This document shows, one piece after another, positions 2,690 through 54,149 of a stretch of DNA of 64,000 nt. The position numbers were made by a program, and so were the translations under genes. The notes under the pieces were generated by a model. It ran no database searches. It was given only the letters and a program-made list of their open reading frames with translations, and was not told the origin of the DNA. Position 1 is the stretch's first letter; each line of letters opens with the position of its first letter. The DNA is from Escherichia coli (lineage in GTDB: Bacteria; Pseudomonadota; Gammaproteobacteria; Enterobacterales; Enterobacteriaceae): the NCBI RefSeq assembly GCF_003334305.1, contig NZ_QOWS01000021.1; one strand, written 5' to 3'.

Positions 2690-5648
2690 CCTTAATCGCG
2701 TCATCGGATGGTCTGGTTTACTGCTGACGTCTTTATTGAGTACCAGCGCACTCGCAGACAATATCGGCACCAGCGCAGAAGAGCTGGGGCTGAGCGATTA
2801 TCGCCATTTTGTTATTTATCCCCGTCTCGATAAGGCGCTGAAGGCACAGAAAAATAACGACGAAGCAACCGCCATCCGCGAATTTGAATATATACACCAG
2901 CAGGTGCCGGATAATATTCCGCTGACTTTATACCTTGCGGAAGCCTATCGCCATTTTGGTCATGATGACCGGGCGCGGCTGTTGCTTGAGGATCAACTGA
3001 AACGTCACCCAGGAGATGCCCGACTTGAGCGCAGTCTGGCGGCTATTCCGGTTGAAGTGAAAAGCGTTACGACTGTTGAAGAACTGCTTGCCCAGCAAAA
3101 AGCGTGCGACGCTGCGCCGACCCTGCGTTGTCGCAGTGAAGTCGGGCAGAATGCCCTGCGGCTGGCACAATTACCTGTCGCCAGAGCGCAACTGAACGAT
3201 GCGACGTTTGCTGCATCGCCAGAAGGAAAAACGCTGCGAACCGATCTGCTGCAACGGGCAATCTACCTGAAACAATGGTCCCAGGCAGATACGCTATACA
3301 ATGAAGCACGCCAGCAGAACACATTAAGCGCGGCAGAACGCCGTCAGTGGTTTGACGTGCTTCTTGCCGGGCAGCTGGACGATCGGATCCTGGCACTGCA
3401 ATCACAGGGGATCTTCACCGATCCTCAGTCATATATTACTTACGCGACCGCGCTGGCTTATCGTGGCGAAAAAGCACGCCTCCAGCATTATCTCAATGAA
3501 AATAAGCCGCTGTTTACCACGGACGCACAAGAGAAAAGTTGGCTCTATCTGTTATCTAAATACAGCGCCAACCCCGTTCAGGCATTGGCGAATTATACGG
3601 TGCAGTTTGCCGATAACCGCCAGTATGTTGTTGGCGCGACGCTACCGGTGCTGTTAAAAGAAGGTCAGTACGACGCAGCGCAAAAACTGCTCGCCACCCT
3701 CCCCGCCAATGAAATGCTTGAGGAGCGTTATGCTGTCAGCGTGGCGACCCGTAACAAGGCTGAATCTCTGCGTCTGGCACGATTGCTGTATCAGCAAGAA
3801 CCGGCAAATCTTACCCGCCTGGATCAACTGACCTGGCAACTGATGCAGAACGAGCAGTCACGCGAAGCTGCCGATTTATTGCTGCAACGCTATCCTTTCC
3901 AGGGCGATGCGCGTGTCAGCCAGACTTTAATGGCGCGACTGGCGTCTCTGCTGGAAAGTCATCCTTACCTGGCAACGCCGGCGAAGGTGGCGATTTTATC
4001 GAAACCCTTACCGCTGGCGGAGCAACGTCAGTGGCAAAGTCAGTTGCCGGGTATTGCAGATAATTGCCCGGCAATAGTTCGCTTGCTGGGCGATATGTCG
4101 CCTTCCTACGATGCTGCCGCCTGGAACCGTCTGGCAAAGTGTTATCGGGACACGCTACCCGGTGTGGCGCTGTATGCATGGCTTCAGGCCGAACAACGAC
4201 AACCGAACGCCTGGCAACATCGTGCGGTAGCCTATCAGGCGTATCAGGTTGAGGACTACGCCACCGCACTGGCGGCCTGGCAGAAAATCAGTCTTCACGA
4301 CATGAGCAATGAGGATCTGCTTGCTGCTGCCAATACCGCCCAGGCGGCAGGAAATGGTGCAGCTCGCGATCGCTGGCTACAACAGGCAGAACAACGTGGA
4401 CTGGGAAACAATGCCCTCTACTGGTGGCTGCATGCGCAACGTTACATTCCTGGTCAGCCGGAACTCGCACTGAGCGATCTCACGCGCTCAATCAATATTG
4501 CGCCTTCTGCCAACGCTTACGTTGCGCGGGCGACAATTTATCGCCAACGTCATAATGTCCCGGCGGCGGTGAGTGATTTGCGCGCCGCGCTGGAACTGGA
4601 ACCGAATAATAGCAACATCCAGGCAGCGCTTGGTTACGCCTTGTGGGATAGCGGTGATATCGCACAGTCGCGGGAAATGCTCGAACAGGCGCATAAAGGG
4701 CTTCCGGACGATCCGGCACTGATCCGACAACTGGCCTACGTGAACCAGCGTCTGGATGACATGCCTGCGACGCAGCACTACGCCCGGCTGGTGATTGATG
4801 ACATTGATAATCAGGCGCTGATAACCCCACTGACCCCAGAGCAAAATCAGCAACGCTTCAATTTCCGCCGTTTGCATGAGGAGGTCGGTCGCCGCTGGAC
4901 GTTCAGTTTCGATTCTTCTATCGGCTTGCGTTCCGGGGCAATGAGCACCGCTAACAATAATGTCGGCGGCGCAGCGCCAGGGAAAAGCTATCGTAGCTAC
5001 GGGCAACTGGAAGCCGAGTACCGCATCGGACGCAATATGCTGCTGGAAGGCGACCTGCTCTCAGTTTATAGCCGCGTCTTTGCCGATACCGGAGAAAACG
5101 GGGTGATGATGCCGGTGAAAAATCCGATGTCCGGCACCGGTCTGCGCTGGAAGCCGCTGCGCGATCAGATCTTTTTCCTCGCCGTCGAACAGCAGTTGCC
5201 GCTGAACGGGCAAAATGGCGCATCCGATACCATGCTGCGCGCCAGCGCCTCATTCTTTAATGGCGGCAAATACAGCGACGAATGGCACCCGAACGGTTCA
5301 GGCTGGTTTGCCCAAAACCTGTACCTCGATGCGGCGCAATATATCCGCCAGGATATTCAGGCGTGGACGGCAGATTATCGCGTCAGCTGGCATCAGAAGG
5401 TAGCTAACGGACAGACTATTGAGCCTTACGCTCACGTTCAGGACAACGGCTATCGTGATAAAGGCACTCAGGGCGCGCAGCTTGGCGGAGTCGGGGTCCG
5501 CTGGAATATCTGGACCGGCGAGACGCACTACGACGCCTGGCCGCACAAAGTCAGTCTCGGCGTCGAGTATCAACATACCTTTAAGGCGATTAATCAACGT
5601 AACGGAGAGCGCAACAACGCGTTTCTCACCATTGGAGTGCACTGGTAA
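2676..5648 (+). CDS. nfrA: Outer membrane protein NfrA (phage N4 adsorption protein A), TPR-rich, 990 aa
   Basis: ORF 2655-5648; internal Met at codon 8 gives a signal-peptide-like N-terminus (MKENNLNRVIGWSGLLLTSLL); synteny with nfrB. Confidence 0.85.
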   Translation: MKENNLNRVIGWSGLLLTSLLSTSALADNIGTSAEELGLSDYRHFVIYPRLDKALKAQKNNDEATAIREFEYIHQQVPDNIPLTLYLAEAYRHFGHDDRARLLLEDQLKRHPGDARLERSLAAIPVEVKSVTTVEELLAQQKACDAAPTLRCRSEVGQNALRLAQLPVARAQLNDATFAASPEGKTLRTDLLQRAIYLKQWSQADTLYNEARQQNTLSAAERRQWFDVLLAGQLDDRILALQSQGIFTDPQSYITYATALAYRGEKARLQHYLNENKPLFTTDAQEKSWLYLLSKYSANPVQALANYTVQFADNRQYVVGATLPVLLKEGQYDAAQKLLATLPANEMLEERYAVSVATRNKAESLRLARLLYQQEPANLTRLDQLTWQLMQNEQSREAADLLLQRYPFQGDARVSQTLMARLASLLESHPYLATPAKVAILSKPLPLAEQRQWQSQLPGIADNCPAIVRLLGDMSPSYDAAAWNRLAKCYRDTLPGVALYAWLQAEQRQPNAWQHRAVAYQAYQVEDYATALAAWQKISLHDMSNEDLLAAANTAQAAGNGAARDRWLQQAEQRGLGNNALYWWLHAQRYIPGQPELALSDLTRSINIAPSANAYVARATIYRQRHNVPAAVSDLRAALELEPNNSNIQAALGYALWDSGDIAQSREMLEQAHKGLPDDPALIRQLAYVNQRLDDMPATQHYARLVIDDIDNQALITPLTPEQNQQRFNFRRLHEEVGRRWTFSFDSSIGLRSGAMSTANNNVGGAAPGKSYRSYGQLEAEYRIGRNMLLEGDLLSVYSRVFADTGENGVMMPVKNPMSGTGLRWKPLRDQIFFLAVEQQLPLNGQNGASDTMLRASASFFNGGKYSDEWHPNGSGWFAQNLYLDAAQYIRQDIQAWTADYRVSWHQKVANGQTIEPYAHVQDNGYRDKGTQGAQLGGVGVRWNIWTGETHYDAWPHKVSLGVEYQHTFKAINQRNGERNNAFLTIGVHW

Positions 5649-6539
5649 ATGCGTAAGTTCATTTTCGTATTGCTGACACTGCTTTTGGTCAGCCCTTTTT
5701 CCTTTGCGATGAAAGGTATTATCTGGCAACCACAAAACCGAGATAGTCAGGTTACCGATACCCAGTGGCAGGGGCTGATGAGTCAGTTACGTTTGCAAGG
5801 CTTCGATACCCTGGTTTTGCAATGGACCCGTTACGGCGATGCATTTACCCAGCCAGAACAGCGCACGTTATTGTTTAAGCGTGCCGCAGCTGCGCAACAG
5901 GCTGGCCTGAAGCTGATTGTCGGGCTGAACGCCGATCCGGAATTTTTTATGCACCAGAAACAGTCGTCCGCAGCGCTGGAAAGCTATCTTAATCGCCTGC
6001 TGGCTGCCGATCTCCAGCAAGCCAGATTATGGAGCGCCGCGCCTGGCATAACGCCGGATGGCTGGTACATCAGCGCGGAAATTGACGACCTGAACTGGCG
6101 CAGCGAAGCTGCCCATCAGCCTTTGCTAACATGGTTAAACAACGCGCAGCGGCTGATTAGCGATGTTTCAGCAAAACCGGTTTATATCAGTAGTTTTTTC
6201 GCCGGAAACATGTCGCCCGATGGCTATCGCCAACTGCTGGAACACGTTAAAGCAACCGGCGTTAATGTTTGGGTACAGGATGGCAGCGGCGTGGATAAAC
6301 TGACCGCTGAACAGCGTGAACGTTATCTACAAGCCAGCGCCGATTGCCAAAGTTCCGCCCCAGCAAGCGGCATTGTTTATGAACTTTTTGTCGCCGGCAA
6401 AGGCAAAACCTTTACAGCGAAACCGAAACCGGACGCAGAAATTGCCTCGCTGTTAGCGAAACGTTCCTCTTGCGGTAAAGACACTCTCTATTTCTCTCTG
6501 CGCTATTTGCCCGTCGCGCACGGCATTCTCGAGTATTAA
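5649..6539 (+). CDS. ybcH: YbcH-like secreted protein (DUF4434-like), 296 aa
   Basis: ORF with N-terminal signal peptide immediately after nfrA; matches recalled K-12 gene order nfrB-nfrA-ybcH. Confidence 0.75.
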   Translation: MRKFIFVLLTLLLVSPFSFAMKGIIWQPQNRDSQVTDTQWQGLMSQLRLQGFDTLVLQWTRYGDAFTQPEQRTLLFKRAAAAQQAGLKLIVGLNADPEFFMHQKQSSAALESYLNRLLAADLQQARLWSAAPGITPDGWYISAEIDDLNWRSEAAHQPLLTWLNNAQRLISDVSAKPVYISSFFAGNMSPDGYRQLLEHVKATGVNVWVQDGSGVDKLTAEQRERYLQASADCQSSAPASGIVYELFVAGKGKTFTAKPKPDAEIASLLAKRSSCGKDTLYFSLRYLPVAHGILEY

Positions 6540-7483: not shown

Positions 7484-7528
7484 AGGGCAAAGCGGAAACG
7501 GATAAGACGGGCATAAATGAAGAAGAAA

Positions 7529-7573
7529 TGGCGCGCCCTGCAGGATTCGAACCTGCGGCCCACGACTTAGAAG
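7529..7573. repeat. attL: 45-bp partial copy of the tRNA-Arg 3' end (pauD-like remnant)
   Basis: tggcgcgccctgcaggattcgaacctgcggcccacgacttagaag is identical to 54073-54117; coordinates approximate. Confidence 0.85.
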
Positions 7574-7995
7574 TTCCTAGAACGACATTTTAAGTCAACA
7601 AATTACCGCGCCATCTCTGCGCTCACACGTCCCACTACCTCAAAACATGTAAAGCCTTGCAAGCCATTGTGAGGCCTTATGTGTCTCAGTTTTGTCCCTC
7701 TTTTTTGTACTAAAAAACATAGCAATTGAGGATAAACCTCATGCTATTTTCGCTTATATGCCTTTAAAGGCATGGCGCTTAAATAGATAAAAACACCACA
7801 AAAGCATAAAAAACCACACAGTAAAACCGCAACATAAAACAATAACAGATAATTAAACCAAAAACAGATAGCGCATTGTGATAATCATTCAATACTAAAC
7901 AAAATATAAACAGTGGAGCAATATGTGATTGACTCATTAAGTTAGATATAAAAAATACATATTCAATCATTAAAACGATTGAATGGAGAACTTTT

Positions 7996-8949
7996 ATGCG
8001 GGCGAAACTTCTGGGAATAGTTCTGACAACCCCTATTGCGATCAGCTCTTTTGCTTCTACCGAGACTATATCGTTTACTCCTGACAACATAAATGCGGAC
8101 ATTAGTCTTGGAACTCTGAGCGGAAAAACAAAAGAGCGCGTTTATCTAGCTGAAGAAGGAGGCCGAAAAGTCAGTCAACTCGACTGGAAATTCAATAACG
8201 CTGCAATTATTAAAGGTGCAATTAATTGGGATTTGATGCCCCAGATATCTATTGGGGCTGCGGGCTGGACTACTCTCGGCAGCCGAGGTGGCAATATGGT
8301 CGATCAGGACTGGATGGATTCCAGTAACCCCGGAACCTGGACAGATGAAAGTAGGCACCCTGATACACAACTCAATTATGCCAACGAATTTGATCTGAAT
8401 ATCAAAGGCTGGCTCCTCAACGAACCCAATTACCGCCTGGGACTCATGGCCGGATATCAGGAAAGCCGTTATAGCTTTACAGCCAGAGGTGGTTCCTATA
8501 TCTACAGTTCTGAGGAGGGATTCAGAGATGATATCGGCTCCTTCCCGAATGGAGAAAGAGCAATCGGCTACAAACAACGTTTTAAAATGCCCTACATTGG
8601 CTTGACTGGAAGTTATCGTTATGAAGATTTTGAGCTAGGTGGCACATTTAAATACAGCGGCTGGGTGGAAGCATCTGATAACGATGAGCACTATGACCCA
8701 GGAAAAAGAATCACTTATCGCAGTAAAGTCAAAGACCAAAATTACTATTCTGTTGCAGTCAATGCAGGTTATTACGTAACACCTAACGCAAAAGTTTATG
8801 TTGAAGGCGCATGGAATCGGGTTACGAATAAAAAAGGTAATACTTCACTTTATGATCACAATGATAACACTTCAGACTACAGCAAAAATGGTGCAGGCAT
8901 AGAAAACTATAACTTCATCACTACTGCTGGTCTTAAGTACACCTTTTAA
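7996..8949 (+). CDS. ompT: Outer membrane protease OmpT (omptin), 317 aa
   Basis: Full-length match to the OmpT sequence as recalled (MRAKLLGIVLTTPIAISSFA…TTAGLKYTF). Confidence 0.95.
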   Translation: MRAKLLGIVLTTPIAISSFASTETISFTPDNINADISLGTLSGKTKERVYLAEEGGRKVSQLDWKFNNAAIIKGAINWDLMPQISIGAAGWTTLGSRGGNMVDQDWMDSSNPGTWTDESRHPDTQLNYANEFDLNIKGWLLNEPNYRLGLMAGYQESRYSFTARGGSYIYSSEEGFRDDIGSFPNGERAIGYKQRFKMPYIGLTGSYRYEDFELGGTFKYSGWVEASDNDEHYDPGKRITYRSKVKDQNYYSVAVNAGYYVTPNAKVYVEGAWNRVTNKKGNTSLYDHNDNTSDYSKNGAGIENYNFITTAGLKYTF

Positions 8950-9135
8950 CGAAGTTAACCAGATTTTCTCCCCGGTGGTATTGTATAACCCCGGGGAATT
9001 TGTTTACAGTTACAAGTAGGCAATATCCACTAATTTTGTAAGCATTTAACCTATGTCATAACGTGTAATCTCTTACCGCAACACAAGACCTCAATATATT
9101 CAAATCTTATCTTTATTCCGATATTCAGAGACACA

Positions 9136-10620
9136 ATGCGAAAAATAATCACTCATTTCAAAGTTGTTTTAACGTTACTTCTACCAGTAACCGTATCTGC
9201 CCAGCAGATACAGTGGCAATCCTGTATGGCCAGTCAATTCAACCACTGGTTTGGTGAGGAAAAACCGTCTCCTGACTTACTATGTGGTTATTTGTCTGTT
9301 CCATTAAAATATACAGACACAGGCGGAGATGCTTCTTATGAAAAAAAATCACAAGTCAAACTAGCGTTGACAAAATTGCCGGCAAAAAGCAAGCATAAAG
9401 GAAGTATCCTGATAATAAGTGGTGGTCCCGGGTTACCAGGCATAAATCCTTATATTAACTTTGACTGGCCAGTCACAAATCTTCGTGAGTCATGGGATAT
9501 TATTGGATTTGATCCTCGAGGCGTCGGACAGTCCACTCCGACAATAAACTGCCGGCAATCAGATACAGAGACTCAGGAAAACATAACCGAAAAGCAACAA
9601 GTATTAAATAAAATTAATGCCTGTATCCATAATACCGGAGCCGAAGTCATTCGCCATATCGGCTCTAACGAGGCTGTATACGATATTGATCGTATTAGGC
9701 AAGCCTTGGGGGATAAACAACTGACAGCCGTGGCGTATTCGTATGGAACTCAAATTGCAGCCTTATATGCAGAACGTTTTCCCTACAACGTAAGATCTAT
9801 CGTTCTTGATGGAGTCGTCGATATCGATGACCTGGAGGACAACTTCACATGGCAACTCAAACAGGCACAGAGTTATCAGGAAACGTTTGATCGCTTTGCA
9901 TCCTGGTGTGCGCGTACAAAAAGTTGCCCGCTTTCTTCAGACAGAGATAAGGCAATAACTCAGTTCCATGAGCTATTATCAAAATTACATCACAAACCTT
10001 TATTAGACAGTAAGGGAGAAAATATATCTTCAGATGAACTCATATCATTAACAACAGACCTTCTGCTATGGCGTTCATCATGGCCAACCCTTGCAACTGC
10101 CATACGCCAGTTCTCTCAGGGGATTGTCAGTAATGAAATTGAAACTGCGCTCAGTGCTCCGATAGCCTCAGAAGAGTCAAGCGATGCTTCGGGGGTAATC
10201 CTCTGTGTAGATCAGGGGGATGAGCAATTAACACCAGAAGAGCGAAAATCCCGAAAAGACGCTCTTGCGAATGCCTTCCCGGCTATTAACTTTGACAATG
10301 GACGTTCCGATTCACCTGATTTTTGTGAATTATGGCCAATACATAGCGACCTGAACAAAACTCGCCTGAAAAATACTGTTCTGCCCTCTGGTTTACTGTT
10401 TGTAGCACACAAATACGACCCAACAACGCCCTGGATTAATGCCCGTAAGATGGCAGAGAAATTTTCCAGCCCGTTACTAACAATAAATGGTGATGGGCAT
10501 ACATTAGCTCTCACCGGAGTTAATTTATGTGTAGATAAAGCAGTTGTACATTACCTGATCACTCCACAAAAAATAGAAAATATATACTGCCCAGGAAATT
10601 CTGAAGCAGAAATACAATAA
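9136..10620 (+). CDS. Secreted alpha/beta-hydrolase-fold peptidase-like protein (S33 / tripeptidyl-aminopeptidase-like), 494 aa
   Basis: Signal peptide (…VTVSA|QQ), GGPG and Ser-nucleophile-like AYSYGTQ motifs; AT-rich; sits where appY is in K-12. Confidence 0.55.
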   Translation: MRKIITHFKVVLTLLLPVTVSAQQIQWQSCMASQFNHWFGEEKPSPDLLCGYLSVPLKYTDTGGDASYEKKSQVKLALTKLPAKSKHKGSILIISGGPGLPGINPYINFDWPVTNLRESWDIIGFDPRGVGQSTPTINCRQSDTETQENITEKQQVLNKINACIHNTGAEVIRHIGSNEAVYDIDRIRQALGDKQLTAVAYSYGTQIAALYAERFPYNVRSIVLDGVVDIDDLEDNFTWQLKQAQSYQETFDRFASWCARTKSCPLSSDRDKAITQFHELLSKLHHKPLLDSKGENISSDELISLTTDLLLWRSSWPTLATAIRQFSQGIVSNEIETALSAPIASEESSDASGVILCVDQGDEQLTPEERKSRKDALANAFPAINFDNGRSDSPDFCELWPIHSDLNKTRLKNTVLPSGLLFVAHKYDPTTPWINARKMAEKFSSPLLTINGDGHTLALTGVNLCVDKAVVHYLITPQKIENIYCPGNSEAEIQ

Positions 10621-10641
10621 TTTCAAAATATTCCGCTATTT

Positions 10642-10692
10642 GCTCCCAATGCAAAACATATATTGCATTGGGAGCATATTCATATTTTTGTT
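10642..10692 (+). terminator. Rho-independent terminator after the hydrolase gene
   Basis: 12-bp perfect inverted repeat gctcccaatgca / tgcattgggagc followed by a T-rich tail; coordinates approximate. Confidence 0.6.
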
Positions 10693-10803
10693 ATTATTGT
10701 ATGAAATCGTCTCATGTACACGGTCCTTTTTTCGCCGAAAACTGATATTACTTTAATCAAAAGTTGACGTGCCAGATTCGAAGTAAATTTATAAAATATC
10801 AAA

Positions 10804-11109
10804 TCAATATACATTTTGCACCTTCGAGATAGTAATGACTGTTACTGTAACATGAGTTACAAACAGCTTCATACCCAGAGCTACTGATGTATCAACTCGA
10901 TTCAACAATACCCGATATTTATTCCATGCCTCCAGCAACGATCTTTCTTCCTCCGTTGCGATTTCCAGATCTACAGCATCCTGCAGTGGCGCAATATACT
11001 CACTGAATTCCTGGATGTAGAACTGTGTGGTGACGGTCTTCCAGCCATTCGGCTCCTGCTGTATCGAAGCATACCAGGCTATTTCAATATCGCTATGCTG
11101 CGGCAGCAT
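10804..11109 (-). pseudogene. Tail fibre assembly protein C-terminal remnant (tfaX-like)
   Basis: Translation contains the conserved Tfa motif [37 protein letters not shown] with no N-terminal domain; about 110 nt is a direct repeat of 13690-13800. Confidence 0.7.
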
Positions 11110-11165
11110 TTAACCCCTTGTAATTCATCGCCATAATTGATTTAATTCACAAATAAAACTATAAC

Positions 11166-11834
11166 ATGGTGAAATTAATGAAAAAAAACACAGATGATGG
11201 GGCTAAAATTTACACACCACTTACCCTAAAGCTTTATGACTGGTGGGTTTTGGGAGTATCAAATCGGCTTGCATGGGGATGTCCTACAAAGGAACACCTT
11301 CTTCCACACTTTCTGGAACATTTAGGTAACAACCATCTGGATATTGGTGTTGGAACTGGGTTTTACCTTACTCACGTACCTGAGAGTAGTCTGATATCTT
11401 TAATGGATTTGAACGAAGCTAGCCTGAACGCGGCATCTACAAGGGCTGGGGAATCAAAAATTAAACATAAAATTAACCATGATGTTTTTGAACCTTATCC
11501 CGCGGCGTTACATGGTCAATTTGATTCCATTTCCATGTTTTACCTTCTTCACTGCCTGCCTGGAAATATATCTACAAAAAGCTGTGTAATACGCAATGCG
11601 GCGCAGGCCTTAACTGACGATGGAACTCTATACGGAGCCACAATTCTTGGCGATGGAGTTGTGCACAATAGCTTCGGTCAAAAACTGATGCGCATTTACA
11701 ATCAGAAAGGCATCTTTTCAAACACAAAAGATTCCGAAGAAGGCTTAACACATATACTCTCAGAGCATTTCGAGAATGTTAAAACCAAGGTTCAAGGTAC
11801 TGTAGTAATGTTTTCCGCTTCAGGGAAAAAATAG
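11166..11834 (+). CDS. ybcY: Class I SAM-dependent methyltransferase (YbcY-like), 222 aa
   Basis: Gly-rich SAM-binding motif DIGVGTGFY; same position as the ybcY pseudogene of DLP12. Confidence 0.65.
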   Translation: MVKLMKKNTDDGAKIYTPLTLKLYDWWVLGVSNRLAWGCPTKEHLLPHFLEHLGNNHLDIGVGTGFYLTHVPESSLISLMDLNEASLNAASTRAGESKIKHKINHDVFEPYPAALHGQFDSISMFYLLHCLPGNISTKSCVIRNAAQALTDDGTLYGATILGDGVVHNSFGQKLMRIYNQKGIFSNTKDSEEGLTHILSEHFENVKTKVQGTVVMFSASGKK

Positions 11835-11840
11835 CATCCA

Positions 11841-11882
11841 ACCGCAGCACGTTCTTGCATAAGGCGTGTCTGCGGTTTTTCA
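11841..11882 (+). terminator. Rho-independent terminator after ybcY
   Basis: Stem accgcagcacg…cgtgtctgcggt followed by TTTTT; coordinates approximate. Confidence 0.55.
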
Positions 11883-32256: not shown

Positions 32257-35937
<3,681 letters not shown>

Positions 35938-42641: not shown

Positions 42642-42905
42642 ACGGCCTCCCTAACGGAAACCGCAGAATGCAGAAAATCGCAGGTGCATTTCTGCATCTG
42701 TGACAAGGTGATGAGTTCAGATTGTGGTCGCATTTAAGTCCCCTTAAATGCGCAGAAGTCACCGGAGTTGTTCAGGCTCCGATGAGAGGATTATGGCGGA
42801 TTGATTACGATAAATCAAAACTATCTTGAAGCCAAAACAGTGATCTTCGCTTTAAAAACCTTGTATACTTTCACCTAATCACAGCCAGAACTATGGATCT
42901 AACCA

Positions 42906-43283
42906 ATGACCAACAAAGAAAACAAAGATAAATATATTAACAAGTTCAAGAAAGAGCTTTCAAAATATATACAACCAACTGCTGGAGTGGACATTCAATT
43001 ATTTAACTCTAAGGATGGTGGTGGTGTAATTAAAGCCACTTTGAATAGAAGTGGAAAAAGAAAATCATCTATTGCAGGTAATTTTACTAAATTAGGTGAG
43101 GCAATTACCTCGAGTGGGCAGAGGGTTTTTGGTGGTGATCTATCAAATGTAAATTTTTACGGAACAAATACGATTTTTGATGGAGATACAATATTTTTAA
43201 TTAAATCACCTGATTCAGAGGAGTGGTCATCACAAAAAGCTTCCAAAGACGTAGAGGGCATCGTATTTGGAGGGAAAAAATGA
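42906..43283 (+). CDS. Hypothetical small soluble protein, 125 aa (first gene of an AT-rich reverse-oriented cargo pair)
   Basis: ORF on the strand opposite to the flanking early genes; Lys/Gly-rich; no recognisable motif. Confidence 0.5.
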   Translation: MTNKENKDKYINKFKKELSKYIQPTAGVDIQLFNSKDGGGVIKATLNRSGKRKSSIAGNFTKLGEAITSSGQRVFGGDLSNVNFYGTNTIFDGDTIFLIKSPDSEEWSSQKASKDVEGIVFGGKK

Positions 43284-43708
43284 TTAACATTACTACTAAG
43301 GATGGCACTCAAGTCAGTGGTGAAGTAAGAGATCTAGTAATTCTTCTTGAAACTGATGGAAAAACGGTGTCTGATTATTTGCAGCCAATCCCTCCCAAAA
43401 AAGATACACACTGGAGCATGATTTTCATTCCGGTAGCAATTTATATACTACTTAATCTTGTATACATTATTGCTCACCCATTATTTCCTGAAAAATATCT
43501 AAAAACATCAACATCTATATTTCTATTCATTTCCTTCATATTAAGTGCAATAGTAGCATATTTTGTTTTCCATAAGCATAAATCTGCCACTCTATCCATA
43601 TGCAGCTTAGTGTTCTTAGTGTTAATTGTAGGTGCTAACGTAGGGTTTATCAGTTACAGCGACCTAACACAAAAAGCGACGCAAAAATTAGATAGTTTGT
43701 CTAAATAA
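43280..43708 (+). CDS. Hypothetical membrane protein with about 3 TM helices, 142 aa
   Basis: ATG preceded by GGAGGG; ATGA overlap with the upstream gene; three hydrophobic stretches of about 20 aa. Confidence 0.5.
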   Translation: MINITTKDGTQVSGEVRDLVILLETDGKTVSDYLQPIPPKKDTHWSMIFIPVAIYILLNLVYIIAHPLFPEKYLKTSTSIFLFISFILSAIVAYFVFHKHKSATLSICSLVFLVLIVGANVGFISYSDLTQKATQKLDSLSK

Positions 43709-43786
43709 TTATGTTGCCATGCGAAGTATGCATGGCTGCATGTCTGCCTTCCATTTAAAATGGGCTAAGACCTATAACCCTAAATA

Positions 43787-44500
43787 TTATTCTTTATTAT
43801 CTTCTTTACCACTTCGCACCATCCCGTTCGACTTGTTGCGGTTGTACTTCGCCTGAAGCAGCTGGATTGGCGTCGGGCCATGCTCGGCAGCCGGTGCTGC
43901 AATCGCCCGGCGCACAGGCGGTACTGGTTTGCCCTCGGTGACGCGCCTCTCCCACATGTCCAGCAGATCGCCGGCTTCACGCGCCAGCTCACCATGCGTT
44001 AACTGGCGCTCTGTGCTGCGGTGGCGCAGTTCGACGCAGATGTGGTACATGACAGGCTGTGACCACGGGAAATGCTCGCTGGAAGTGAATTCGAAGGAAC
44101 GATTACGCCAATCCCAGTATTCGGTTATGACTTGGTCAACAGTGATACCTAACGCCCCGCCACTCTGCTTACACCACGCTACGAACTGGCCGGGCGACGG
44201 CAGGAATGGTCGCTCCTGTCGGCGGGCCACGCGCATTCCGGCGTTAACCTGTTCCATTGTGGTGATCCCGTTTTCCCGGAAAGCCAGAACCCACTGGCGG
44301 CGAATTTCGTTCAGTTCGTTCTGGTCACGGTTAGCCAGGCTCGCAGGGAAAGTTGCCAGCAACTGGCTGAATACACCGTTGATGATCTGCGCTACCTGCT
44401 GTACCTGCGGCTTTTCGTCGTACTGTTCCGGCATGTTGTTGGCGATCCGGCGCATCTGCTCACGGTCAAAGTTAACCATCTGTGCGGCGATGTTTTTCAT
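43787..44500 (-). CDS. P: Replication protein P (helicase loader), 237 aa
   Basis: N-terminal two-thirds match lambda P as recalled; the C-terminus diverges. Confidence 0.85.
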   Translation of the reverse strand: MKNIAAQMVNFDREQMRRIANNMPEQYDEKPQVQQVAQIINGVFSQLLATFPASLANRDQNELNEIRRQWVLAFRENGITTMEQVNAGMRVARRQERPFLPSPGQFVAWCKQSGGALGITVDQVITEYWDWRNRSFEFTSSEHFPWSQPVMYHICVELRHRSTERQLTHGELAREAGDLLDMWERRVTEGKPVPPVRRAIAAPAAEHGPTPIQLLQAKYNRNKSNGMVRSGKEDNKE

Positions 44501-46380: not shown

Positions 46381-46420
46381 TGTTTTGACCATCAATACGC
46401 AAGCGTATAAATTAAAACTT

Positions 46421-47113
46421 ATGAAAAAAGAAACTCTTGCTGATCGCTTAAATCTAGCGATGGAACAATCTGGAATGTCTCAAGGCGCTCTTGCAAAGGC
46501 GTCTGGCGTAGCTCAACCCACAATCTGGAGACTGACAAGCGGCAACGCGCGCGGCTCAACAAAAATTGTTGAAATAGCTAATGCATTGGGTGTTCGAACA
46601 GAATGGCTCTCTTCAGGCATAGGCCCGATGAGAAATGACGGTCAACAATCAGGGAAGCCTGCTGTCAGCCATTCCAAATACTTCAAAATTGACGTTCTTG
46701 ATATAGAAGTCAGTGCCGGGCCGGGTGTAATCAACCGTGAGTTTGTAGAAGTTCTACGCTCGGTTGAATACTCGTTTGACGATGCTCGTCACATGTTCGA
46801 TGGCAGGAAGGCGGAAAATATCCGCATCATTAACGTGCGTGGTGACAGCATGTCAGGAACGATCGAACCAGGTGATCTGCTGTTCGTTGATATCACGGTT
46901 AAATCTTTCGACGGTGATGGTATCTATGCGTTTCTGTATGACGACACCGCCCATGTAAAACGCCTGCAAATGATGAAGGATAAGCTGCTGGTTATCTCTG
47001 ATAACAAGAGCTACTCACCGTGGGACCCGATCGAGAAAGACGAGATGAACCGCGTGTTCATCTTCGGGAAAGTCATCGGGAGCATGCCGCAGACATATAG
47101 AAAGCATGGGTAG
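46421..47113 (+). CDS. cI: CI-type repressor (HTH + S24 LexA-like peptidase domain), 230 aa
   Basis: N-terminal HTH (MSQGALAKASGVAQPTIWRL) and C-terminal S24 region (VRGDSMSGTIEPGDLLFVD…KRL). Confidence 0.85.
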   Translation: MKKETLADRLNLAMEQSGMSQGALAKASGVAQPTIWRLTSGNARGSTKIVEIANALGVRTEWLSSGIGPMRNDGQQSGKPAVSHSKYFKIDVLDIEVSAGPGVINREFVEVLRSVEYSFDDARHMFDGRKAENIRIINVRGDSMSGTIEPGDLLFVDITVKSFDGDGIYAFLYDDTAHVKRLQMMKDKLLVISDNKSYSPWDPIEKDEMNRVFIFGKVIGSMPQTYRKHG

Positions 47114-47175
47114 AAATCAGAACAAAATTATGCACTTCGCTTTTCAGCTTACTGTAGTAAGGCAATAAATTAGGC

Positions 47176-47212
47176 TTGACGTTAGCTATCAGGTGCACAA
47201 CAATAATTGTTG
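47176..47212 (+). promoter_or_regulatory. Candidate promoter with a 15-bp perfect palindrome (caacaataattgttg) upstream of the HTH-peptidase gene
   Basis: TTGACG -35-like hexamer followed by the palindrome, 30-65 nt upstream of the 47243 start; coordinates approximate. Confidence 0.4.
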
Positions 47213-47242
47213 AATAATAGGTTTTTTTAACTAGGTGATAAC

Positions 47243-48382
47243 ATGGCAGCGGTTGAATTTCAATTGTCTAGGAAGATGATTGATTGGATAGCAAATTCTC
47301 AAGGAGTTTCTATCGAAACTCTTGCTGACCAAGTCATGCCCAAAAAGATTAATAAATTTCTTAACGGAGTGGTAAGTAAATCCGCAGCAGAAAAACTGGC
47401 AAAAATTGGAGGAATCCCTTTCGGTTTTTTATTTCTTGAAACGCCACCAACTCCAGCCAAACCCAAGATCCCTGACTTAAGGCAAGCTATAAATAGCCGT
47501 GAGTTAGGAAAAGATTTTTTTGATGTTTACTATGATATAGAATATAAACTTGAGTGGTACAAAGACTATTTAAGAGAAAATGGTAATGATGATCCACTCG
47601 ATTTTATTGGTAAATTTAAATTTAATAGAAAATTAAATTATAAGGTTGTTGCTACAGACATAGCAAACACAATACATTTTGATATACAAAAAGAGATAAA
47701 AAATGTCACTTTTGAGAGCTATTTTTCTAAAGTGGCAAAACTAATAGAAGACACTGGCGTATTAGTTTTCAAGAATGGTGTTGTGGGTAATAATAATAAA
47801 AGAAAACTTGACACGCGAGAGTTTCGTGGTTTCTGTATATCTGATAGCGTTGCTCCGATCATTTTTGTAAATAGCTCGGACGCGTTATCTGCGCAGGTAT
47901 TTACATTATTTCATGAGGTGGCTCATCTTTGGCTTGGAGTCGATGGAGTCTCTGGGTGGGACACAGAAAAAAACATAGAATCTTTTTGTAATAAAGTTGC
48001 TGCTGAAATCTTAATGCCTGATAATCTCTTCAAATCTTTCTGGCTTAATGCATCCAGCGATAATAATTATTATCGAGTAAAAGAGGTTTCTAAGTTATTT
48101 AAGGTTAGTGATTTCGCTTGTGCAATCAAAGCGTTACAATTAGATTTGATAGAAAGAAACACTTTGGAGATAATTAAAGATCAAGCTTACAATAAGCCCA
48201 AAAAAGAATCCAATGGTGGTTCTTTCTTTAACACATTACCTGTTCGTAACAGTCCAAAACTTACGAATATAATAATTTCCAAAGCAATGTCTCAACAATT
48301 ACCATTAAGGGAAGCAGGCGTACTGCTAAATGTAAAAGCAGATACAGTTGTTGAATTTTATAAAAAACGAGAATCTCTATGA
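47243..48382 (+). CDS. HTH-fused ImmA/IrrE-family (M78/DUF955-like) zinc metallopeptidase, 379 aa
   Basis: N-terminal XRE-like HTH; HEXXH motif (FHEVAHLW); AGGTGA SD; AT-rich; directly downstream of cI. Confidence 0.7.
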   Translation: MAAVEFQLSRKMIDWIANSQGVSIETLADQVMPKKINKFLNGVVSKSAAEKLAKIGGIPFGFLFLETPPTPAKPKIPDLRQAINSRELGKDFFDVYYDIEYKLEWYKDYLRENGNDDPLDFIGKFKFNRKLNYKVVATDIANTIHFDIQKEIKNVTFESYFSKVAKLIEDTGVLVFKNGVVGNNNKRKLDTREFRGFCISDSVAPIIFVNSSDALSAQVFTLFHEVAHLWLGVDGVSGWDTEKNIESFCNKVAAEILMPDNLFKSFWLNASSDNNYYRVKEVSKLFKVSDFACAIKALQLDLIERNTLEIIKDQAYNKPKKESNGGSFFNTLPVRNSPKLTNIIISKAMSQQLPLREAGVLLNVKADTVVEFYKKRESL

Positions 48383-48891
48383 TTCATAATGGAAAATTCT
48401 TAATTGATAGTAATGTCTTCATAGAGGCAAAAAACTTTGCATATAACTTCAATTATTGCAAAATATTTTGGGATTTTCTTCTCGCTTTACACATTAATGG
48501 TCTGATTTATAGCATTAATGCTGTAAAAAAAGAACTATGTGCAAAAGATGATCCATTGTGTAAATGGATTAAAGAAGAGTTACCATCATCATTCTTCGAA
48601 GATGAGCATAGTTCAATAGAAAATTATGCAAAGTTAATAAATTGGTCAACTAAATTAGATGTTACCGAAAAGGCAAAGTTTGATTTTGCAAGCCATGAAA
48701 AAGCAGATGCTTTTTTAATAGCCCATGCGATGACACATGGATATACTATTATTACCCATGAGAAACCATCCGGTGGCAAACCTAAAAAAAGAATAATGAT
48801 CCCGGATGCTGCTGCTTCTCACGGCGTTAAGACATTAACACTATATGAATTTCTTCCAAGATACGCTAGTCATAATTTTTCTTTGAAATAA
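48379..48891 (+). CDS. PIN-like (possibly DUF4411-family) putative nuclease/effector, 170 aa
   Basis: ATGA overlap with the upstream gene; N-terminal strand-Asp motif (FLIDSNVFIEA) typical of PIN folds; fold assignment is tentative. Confidence 0.5.
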   Translation: MIHNGKFLIDSNVFIEAKNFAYNFNYCKIFWDFLLALHINGLIYSINAVKKELCAKDDPLCKWIKEELPSSFFEDEHSSIENYAKLINWSTKLDVTEKAKFDFASHEKADAFLIAHAMTHGYTIITHEKPSGGKPKKRIMIPDAAASHGVKTLTLYEFLPRYASHNFSLK

Positions 48892-48896
48892 AACGT

Positions 48897-48923
48897 CCCG
48901 GCCACCGTGCCGGGTTTTCTTTT
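48897..48923 (+). terminator. Rho-independent terminator after the two-gene cassette
   Basis: cccggccaccgtgccggg followed by TTTTCTTTT. Confidence 0.75.
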
Positions 48924-49044
48924 GCCTCCCCTCATCACACACACCGTTCAAAAAACCACCACAACCCCGCTTCAGTTATCGCTATGCGATGCAAGTCACA
49001 AAATTAATTCTTTTTGCTATCAAATATTTAATATCAAAACACAT

Positions 49045-49092
49045 CTAGCAATAGCAATAAGTATTGATATCATCAATAGCAATAGCTATTAT
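49045..49092. promoter_or_regulatory. OL-like operator region (pL)
   Basis: tagcaatagcaataagtattg and atcaatagcaatagctattatc repeat the motif seen in the OR region; coordinates approximate. Confidence 0.45.
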
Positions 49093-49198
49093 CACCATGT
49101 CGCAACAACACAACGATACGGCAATCACCTGATTCACCGTTGCGATGACCGCTTAGATCCGCAGCTTGAATTTCAGCAGGCTCCGGGGAGTGCGAGGG

Positions 49199-54057: not shown

Positions 54058-54072
54058 CTGATTGAATTGTAA

Positions 54073-54117
54073 TGGCGCGCCCTGCAGGATTCGAACCTGC
54101 GGCCCACGACTTAGAAG
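54073..54117. repeat. attR core (3' 45 nt of argU), identical to 7529-7573
   Basis: Direct repeat seen in sequence. Confidence 0.85.
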
Positions 54118-54149
54118 GTCGTTGCTCTATCCAACTGAGCTAAGGGCGC
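54073..54149 (-). tRNA. argU: tRNA-Arg (anticodon UCU), argU; prophage attachment site
   Basis: Reverse complement reads GCGCCCTTAGCTCAGTTGGATAGAGCAACGACCTTCTAAGTCGTGGGCCGCAGGTTCGAATCCTGCAGGGCGCGCCA (77 nt, cloverleaf-compatible, CCA end); coordinates approximate. Confidence 0.9.

Follow-up and report, generated by a model that had tools for sequence, protein, structure and literature searches.

A stretch of 64,000 nucleotides of Escherichia coli DNA (contig NZ_QOWS01000021.1 of assembly GCF_003334305.1), hereafter the window, contains directly downstream of the omptin protease gene ompT a gene for a 494-residue alpha/beta hydrolase. Bioinformatics analysis revealed that this protein, referred to below as the hydrolase, is an uncharacterised member of a known enzyme family, the Hip1/tripeptidyl-peptidase (TPP) branch of the alpha/beta hydrolases (MEROPS S33-type), and indicates that omptin and hydrolase are a co-inherited two-gene unit. 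It is likely that the hydrolase is a Sec-exported, disulfide-bonded and catalytically competent serine hydrolase of the Hip1/TPP type, carried as lysogenic-conversion cargo and acting on periplasmic peptides or proteins, plausibly behind the omptin. The conserved omptin-hydrolase partnership was previously unreported in the literature found. The features concerned are the following (strand in brackets).

7996..8949 (+): ompT, outer-membrane omptin protease, 317 aa; RefSeq; 99% identical to K-12 OmpT.
8969..9005 (+): hairpin with a U-rich tract just after ompT, identified by folding; probably the ompT terminator, possibly leaky.
9136..10620 (+): alpha/beta hydrolase gene of the Hip1/TPP type, 494 aa; open reading frame (ORF) list, RefSeq, Pfam.
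9136-9201 (+): predicted signal peptide of the hydrolase, aa 1-22, from n-, h- and c-region features.
10641..10690 (+): intrinsic-terminator-like hairpin with a 14-bp stem and a T-rich tail, closing the omptin-hydrolase module.

The ORF begins at 9136, the first in-frame start codon following a stop, and its product is 100% identical to RefSeq WP_001226378.1 of E. coli GE3, a strain with which the window neighbourhood of the gene is collinear throughout. The RefSeq annotation of this protein, "alpha/beta hydrolase", is generic and recurs across thousands of genomes. Since the homologues found in the protein search number in the thousands, and since the ratio of nonsynonymous to synonymous substitution rates (dN/dS) between diverged copies is 0.12-0.17, the comparisons indicate a real gene and no chance reading frame. 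The initial annotation of this DNA, made from the letters alone, had described a 494-aa ORF with a signal peptide and S33-type hydrolase features, rich in A and T, with a strong terminator of its own, in the slot between ompT and a remnant of the tail-fibre-assembly gene tfa where K-12 has appY. This description is borne out. The G–C content of the ORF is 42.3% (35.4% at third codon positions) and falls below the values of the prophage (50.2%) and of the left chromosomal flank (52.1%). The hairpin proper (10641-10676) starts 20 bases past the stop codon and has a folding energy of −24.4 kcal/mol (z = −5.55 versus shuffles), and the gene lies between the end of ompT at 8949 and the tfa remnant at 10804-11109 on the minus strand.

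According to Pfam, residues 91-460 form an Abhydrolase_1 domain (PF00561; 5e-33) and residues 386-479 a TAP-like Abhydrolase_4 domain (PF08386; 2e-15). The best sequence match in the PDB is Mycobacterium tuberculosis Hip1 (Rv2224c), aligned over its full length (E = 8e-52), followed by TnmK1/K2 and then by weak matches to prolyl aminopeptidases. An AlphaFold (AF2) model, computed with 73 homologues as input, reached a predicted local distance difference test (pLDDT) value of 90.7 and a predicted template modelling (pTM) score of 0.91. In Foldseek analysis, the top six matches of this model were all Hip1 structures (template modelling (TM) scores 0.73-0.82), and the model has a helical lid like that of Hip1. 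Membership of the proline iminopeptidases was rejected, as the scores of 35.8 bits for NCBIfam TIGR01249 and 19.1 for TIGR01250 compare with cutoffs of 259.75 and 167.65, respectively. Among the PHROGs families, the hydrolase belongs to phrog_20134, the function of which is given there as unknown, and has a weak esterase/lipase match besides.

According to the literature, Hip1 was established by experiment as a serine protease with an esterase side activity, cleaving GroEL2, azocasein and tripeptide p-nitroanilide substrates as well as a p-nitrophenyl ester, p-nitrophenyl butyrate, and both Hip1 and the Streptomyces TPP A/B/C, the characterised relatives, are peptidases (PMC4022732). The catalytic triad of Hip1 is Ser228/Asp463/His490, its oxyanion hole is built from Gly110 and Tyr229, Thr466 lies in the S1 pocket, and five disulfides have been predicted among its 11 cysteines (PMC13041806, PMC4022732). 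In the PDB sequence alignment, these triad residues correspond to Ser202 (9739-9741), Asp428 (10417-10419) and His455 (10498-10500) of the hydrolase, in the order Ser-Asp-His, while G97 of a GGPG motif and Y203 align with the oxyanion-hole residues and T431 with Thr466. Conservation was counted over the 73 aligned homologues, a set extending from Enterobacterales to Nocardia and Mycobacterium. The whole triad is intact in 71 of them (S202 in 72, D428 in 73 and H455 in 72), and G97, P98, G99 and Y203 are invariant. The nucleophile elbow reads A200-Y-S202-Y-G204, with Ala at the first position in 45 of the 73 relatives, and none of the ten mature-protein cysteines is found in fewer than 72. The Hip1 active-site residues G97, Y203, T431 and Q243 (hydrolase numbering) are also conserved. 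The hydrolase is apparently catalytically competent.

The N-terminus, MRKIITHFKVVLTLLLPVTVSA followed after the predicted cleavage site by QQ, has a basic n-region, a hydrophobic core and V-S-A at positions −3 to −1, and it contains no lipobox cysteine. This signal peptide was read by rule, without a predictor; the alignments of homologues start at residues 21-22, which is the predicted mature N-terminus. By default, a Sec-type signal predicts export to the periplasm only, and the sequence analyses made gave no indication that the hydrolase is released beyond the outer membrane.

Besides the window version, four further versions of the module were compared (identities are to the window).

IncFIB plasmids, beside the iro locus: omptin 91%, hydrolase 95%; DNA homology covers exactly 7878-10704.
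Plasmid-like contigs, beside afa/fimbrial genes: omptin 79%, hydrolase 84.5%.
Contigs with pap-like and autotransporter genes: omptin 72%, hydrolase 81%.
F plasmid family, where the omptin is OmpP: omptin 70%, hydrolase 78%.
Classical F plasmid, NC_002483.1, a member of the preceding family: ompP at 32322-33269, hydrolase paralogue at 33374-34861.

In all five versions, the omptin lies directly upstream of the hydrolase on the same strand, and the spacers, 92-188 nucleotides (nt) long, all contain hairpin stems of the form CCCCGG...CCGGGG. The homology of the plasmid module starts upstream of ompT (7878) and ends just past the hydrolase terminator (10704). Pairwise distances rank the five versions identically for the two genes, and dN/dS between diverged versions amounts to 0.07-0.15 (omptin) and 0.12-0.17 (hydrolase), at synonymous divergences (dS) of about 0.4-2.6 overall and about 0.6-1.1 for the hydrolase. 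In four of these five versions, the hydrolase is better conserved than the omptin. This parallel divergence, together with the dN/dS values of both genes, indicates that the unit is inherited as a pair and that both of its genes are under purifying selection. As a separate observation, on F'128 of the laboratory strain DHB4 (3887-6425) a frameshift splits ompP, and the hydrolase is intact.

The distribution of the pair was determined in 5426 complete E. coli genomes, of which 3095 carry ompT, 1254 (about 23%) the hydrolase and 838 the K-12 appY segment. O157:H7, O145 and O111 strains are among the hydrolase carriers. The ompT-spacer-hydrolase junction is uninterrupted in 1231 of the 1254 hydrolase-positive genomes, and at least 80% of the hydrolase gene is covered in 1226. 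Similarly, an omptin or its cut 3' end is located upstream of the hydrolase in 16 of 18 loci from IMG/VR. Of the two remaining loci, one begins at the hydrolase ATG and the other has an insertion sequence (IS) in the spacer at a contig end (L026); the latter was discarded as an exception to the pairing because the inserted IS element explains it. Thus, judging from these comparisons, the initial annotation, which had seen a pair of envelope or secreted proteases as prophage-end cargo in one strain, understated the pairing: ompT and the hydrolase are a conserved unit. The cargo part of that description stands, as the pair is att-bounded and phages carry both genes, whereas the words "peptidase" and "secreted" continue to be predictions. 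Finding the pair alike on phages, on plasmids and in chromosomes is suggestive of cooperation between the two enzymes, although it is no proof of it.

If the hydrolase acts as proposed, signal peptidase I would remove the 22-residue signal peptide by cutting after Ala22, and the mature protein of 472 aa would fold in the periplasm with five disulfides, as the ten conserved cysteines and the five disulfides predicted for Hip1 would lead one to expect. By analogy with Hip1, Ser202-Asp428-His455 would cleave peptide bonds and perhaps also esters, with an oxyanion hole presumably provided by the main chain at G97 and Y203. The hydrolase would then be the downstream half of a mobile cargo unit, omptin then hydrolase, of lambdoid temperate phages and IncF plasmids, and its most likely role would be that of a lysogenic-conversion envelope factor acting on peptides or proteins in the periplasm. 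The least supported step is that the hydrolase might serve as a second tier, finishing cationic host-defence peptides or fragments generated by the omptin. A bolder extension can be put forward only tentatively, and we regard it as doubtful: omptin and hydrolase would form a functional cassette of two envelope proteases acting in tiers, disseminated by temperate phages and by IncF plasmids, in which the surface omptin cuts host cationic peptides or proteins at dibasic sites and a periplasmic serine peptidase destroys what passes the outer membrane. Half of an ancestral unit for evading host defences would then be missing from K-12 and from the B2 uropathogens as a result of loss.

Several observations weigh against a joint function or against peptidase activity. 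K-12 OmpT works without the hydrolase, so that the latter is not required for omptin activity. A literature search on the accession, the locus tags, ompP and the F plasmid, omptins and the phage names found no experiment on the hydrolase and no mention of its linkage to an omptin; "Tap-like" proteins named in a preprint on mycobacterial type VII secretion proved to be unrelated. The Hip1 S1-pocket residues Arg232 and Lys469 are replaced by Gln206 and Ile434, as read from the PDB alignment, and the specificity of the hydrolase therefore probably differs from that of Hip1. The chemistry of the family is diverse, the PDB name of Hip1 being "Carboxylesterase A" and TnmK1/K2 being biosynthetic enzymes of the same fold; with esterases and biosynthetic enzymes among the members of so versatile a family, peptidase chemistry is not guaranteed for the hydrolase.

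The linkage itself also has limits. Relatives of 53-56% identity on a Salmonella Eastbourne plasmid, in Budvicia, on Serratia plasmids and on an unassigned contig have no omptin nearby, and tblastn found no hidden or decayed omptin upstream of them. Conversely, plasmids with the omptins ArlC, IcsP, Pla, Kop or Cpa have no hydrolase. In the plasmid search, the hydrolase was found in 185 Escherichia records and in two Shigella records, compared with 135 Shigella records with an omptin, and was absent from Klebsiella, Yersinia, Erwinia and Cronobacter. Taken together, the relatives with no omptin nearby and the other omptins with no hydrolase point to a pairing that is specific to the OmpT/OmpP clade, a limit resting on counts by organism in plasmid and protein searches. 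The linkage could reflect the shared descent of one mobile fragment and not a shared function.

The conserved hairpin between the two genes is a further difficulty. No sigma-70-like promoter was found at the scan threshold in the 186-nt ompT-hydrolase spacer, and the Shine-Dalgarno sequence of the hydrolase gene is weak. The hydrolase may be expressed from transcripts that read through the hairpin, or from a promoter that escaped recognition. One candidate regulatory element of the module is located upstream of ompT.

7896..7912 (−): PhoP-box-like direct repeat TGTTTATATTTTGTTTA, 84 nt upstream of the ompT start, inside the shared module.

This repeat, TGTTTATATTTTGTTTA, matches KGTTTA-N5-KGTTTA without a mismatch, as no other site in the 64-kb window does, and no PhoP box was found in the ompT-hydrolase spacer. 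Omptins are reportedly under PhoPQ control, and by analogy the repeat may act as a PhoP box.

Of the other explanations, one takes the hydrolase to be an exported esterase, lipase or lactonase acting on host or bacterial lipids or other esters, with a merely historical link to the omptin. The activity of Hip1 on p-nitrophenyl butyrate (PMC4022732), its PDB name, the weak PHROGs esterase/lipase match, a phage annotation of the hydrolase gene as "putative lactone hydrolase", and the TnmK enzymes, which show that the fold supports non-peptidase chemistry, all speak for it. We nevertheless consider this explanation unlikely, as the characterised close relatives, Hip1 and the Streptomyces TPPs, are peptidases (PMC4022732), the other sequence matches of known function are proline iminopeptidases, and the Hip1 active-site residues G97, Y203, T431 and Q243 are conserved. 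An anti-phage or superinfection-exclusion factor, that is, a periplasmic hydrolase destroying incoming phage proteins or modifying a receptor, would fit a gene in a prophage cargo region with a full-length PADLOC match to PDLC01094 ("C3a206, TAP-like protein"; E = 6e-57). The score of that match (192 bits) is, however, about that of the Hip1 match and thus reflects similarity at the family level only; neither OmpT nor the other neighbours have a PADLOC match to a shared system, and on F and IncF plasmids the module stands beside fimbrial, autotransporter and siderophore genes, a company of the virulence or colonisation type. A role of this kind is therefore very improbable.

It is hardly tenable, finally, that the gene is a functionless passenger or a decaying remnant hitch-hiking beside ompT. 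Two losses among E. coli lineages, one in the K-12 type and one in the B2 type, came at no obvious cost, and the weak Shine-Dalgarno sequence of the gene and the spacer in which the scan found no promoter could be read in the same sense. On the other hand, dN/dS stays at 0.12-0.17 across copies at dS of about 1, a result of the selection analysis that largely refutes this explanation; the high coverage of the gene in carrier genomes and the retention of all catalytic residues and cysteines also tell against it. A Hip1/TPP-type hydrolase of periplasmic peptides or proteins, as proposed at the outset, thus continues to be the preferred interpretation.

Comparison with known systems shows how far the analogies reach. 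With Hip1 (also CaeA, a cell-envelope serine protease), the top structural neighbour at a TM score of about 0.8, the hydrolase shares the triad, the GGPG-plus-Tyr oxyanion hole, the Thr after the catalytic Asp, the helical lid, about ten cysteines and a predicted export to the cell envelope. Identity in the structural alignment is only 26-27%; in contrast to Hip1, the hydrolase belongs to a Gram-negative host, is an accessory protein encoded by phages or plasmids, has Ala and not Gly as the first elbow residue in addition to the two S1-pocket replacements, and has no known substrate, whereas Hip1 cleaves GroEL2. The Streptomyces tripeptidyl-peptidases are likewise exported and combine Abhydrolase_1 with a TAP-like C-terminus (family relationship according to PMC4022732); homologues on Streptomyces plasmids align over about 92% of the length, but at 22-25% identity. 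TnmK1 and TnmK2, from enediyne biosynthesis, have the same overall fold (TM 0.72-0.82) and detectable sequence similarity, yet they are cytoplasmic biosynthetic enzymes of 19-22% identity with a different chemistry. The proline iminopeptidases (MEROPS S33.001; TIGR01249) have in common with the hydrolase the alpha/beta-hydrolase core around the nucleophile, but only about 100 residues match, and the hydrolase has a large lid and the TAP-like C-terminus.

The closest counterpart is the F-plasmid hydrolase downstream of ompP (WP_072145210.1 / WP_010892530.1), a paralogue of 76-78% identity with the same position and orientation, triad and cysteines. It differs in its signal peptide, in a shorter spacer (92-105 nt) and in its RepFIB/int context, and is equally uncharacterised. 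Another mobile omptin, arlC (ompTp), is followed on ColV plasmids and plasmids of adherent-invasive E. coli by same-strand genes for envelope and antimicrobial-peptide-resistance functions, forming the arlC-hlyF-mig-14 island (PI-6; PMC6854850). This island shares with the module of the F plasmid both its slot in the IncFIB backbone and the type of integrase that follows, but its partners (an SDR oxidoreductase and Mig-14) are unrelated and it contains no Hip1-like hydrolase. On pAPEC-O78-ColV (L021, 4001-8890), hlyF and mig-14 come next after arlC, and an integrase of the same type as on F follows; an omptin of an E. fergusonii plasmid (L022, 4001-8948; 75% identical) has MacAB-type efflux genes next to it. 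It appears from these loci that the slot behind omptins is repeatedly filled with envelope or peptide-resistance functions.

Omptins (OmpT, OmpP and relatives) have been studied as stand-alone virulence or antimicrobial-peptide-resistance factors, and K-12 as well as the reference uropathogenic and enteropathogenic (EPEC) strains lack the partner gene. Here, an uncharacterised homologue of an M. tuberculosis protease validated as a virulence factor and drug target is found directly behind the omptin in about 23% of complete E. coli genomes, and likewise on the classical F plasmid and in sequenced temperate phages. If the two enzymes do cooperate, strain differences in omptin-linked phenotypes may partly reflect the hydrolase gene. 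Even without cooperation, the gene would provide a Hip1-type enzyme from a tractable Gram-negative host, of which no characterised example was found in the searches.

Two alternative arrangements of the region lack the hydrolase.

8954..10909: segment replaced by an appY-containing segment in K-12-type strains (blastn against MG1655; K-12 annotation).
9106..11079: 1974-bp segment, with the hydrolase, its terminator and the tfa remnant, deleted cleanly in B2/EPEC-type strains.

Homology between K-12 and the window ends at 8953, four nt past the ompT stop codon, and restarts at 10910, with appY in between. Among the B2-type strains, NC101 shows homology in blastn over 7513-9105 and then over 11080-11875, and in CFT073 and 536 the spacer persists as far as about 9105-9110. 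The partner gene accompanies both OmpT and OmpP, although these share only some 70% identity, and the B2 strains keep the spacer; for these reasons, the comparisons indicate that the arrangement with the hydrolase is ancestral and that those of K-12 (appY) and B2 (deletion) are derived losses. Its loss in the K-12 and B2 types implies that the hydrolase is accessory and dispensable for the host. The homology blocks flanking the deletion in NC101 overlap by 11 bp (L010, 7099-7109), which suggests a microhomology-mediated event. Three ompT contexts have been described by Desloges 2019 (PMC6854850), one of which, in isolate "cystitis 6", has a gene named ymcE "186 bp downstream of ompT". As this distance equals the spacer measured here, that "ymcE" is probably the hydrolase gene under a wrong name.

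The two genes lie at one end of a prophage, delimited by the following features.

7527..7573: 47-bp att core and prophage boundary, an exact direct repeat of 54071-54117, corresponding to the 3' part of the argU tRNA gene.
10804..11109 (−): tfa remnant, flanking the cargo on the phage side; RefSeq: incomplete tail fiber assembly protein.
54073-54149: tRNA-Arg(tct), argU; second copy of the 47-bp repeat at 54071-54117.

The att repeats bound a complete lambdoid prophage of about 46.6 kb (7527-54117), DLP12-like and inserted at argU. The gene order is nfrB-nfrA-ybcH-envY-ompT-hydrolase-tfa remnant-methyltransferase (ybcY-like)-ydfK-pinR-tail fibre genes. Going inward from the att end that lies away from the integrase, one meets ompT and the hydrolase first. 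Given this position at the inner edge of an att-bounded prophage, the hydrolase is prophage-end cargo. Temperate phages, namely ev243 (genus Nesevirus), 2G7b, Turner and the PhiR series, with K-12, E. coli C and ECOR13 as listed hosts, carry both genes at 99-100% identity between the tail-fibre/tfa/ybcY genes and attP-int, and in the free phage genome PhiR26_1 homology with the window begins at 7523. In O157:H7, the pair is located at a different chromosomal site, near minCDE, and is again followed by the tfa remnant and the methyltransferase. The DLP12 of K-12 is a remnant of the same kind of phage.

Some observations concern other parts of the prophage. The ybcY-like class I S-adenosylmethionine-dependent methyltransferase gene (11166-11834, +) is intact here (222 aa) and a pseudogene in K-12; its product has a weak PADLOC match to mad2 (7e-4). 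Segments 42820-44172 and 47114-49133 differ from the GE3 prophage, which is 96-99% identical elsewhere, and are mosaic replacements affecting its replication and immunity regions. Two small ORFs in the former, of 125 and 161 aa, are without a match in PADLOC. Within the latter, beside a CI-like repressor gene (46385-47113), the interval 47243-48891 (+) encodes a 379-aa protein with a helix-turn-helix and an ImmA/IrrE-type metallopeptidase domain, the gene of which overlaps that of a 170-aa partner. The 379-aa protein contains a HEVAH motif and has PADLOC matches to capP (1e-14) and RmrA (6e-8), and together with its partner it resembles a toxin-antitoxin pair or a Rosmer-like defence pair, situated in the immunity region. 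At the equivalent position, GE3 has a SIR2-family gene.

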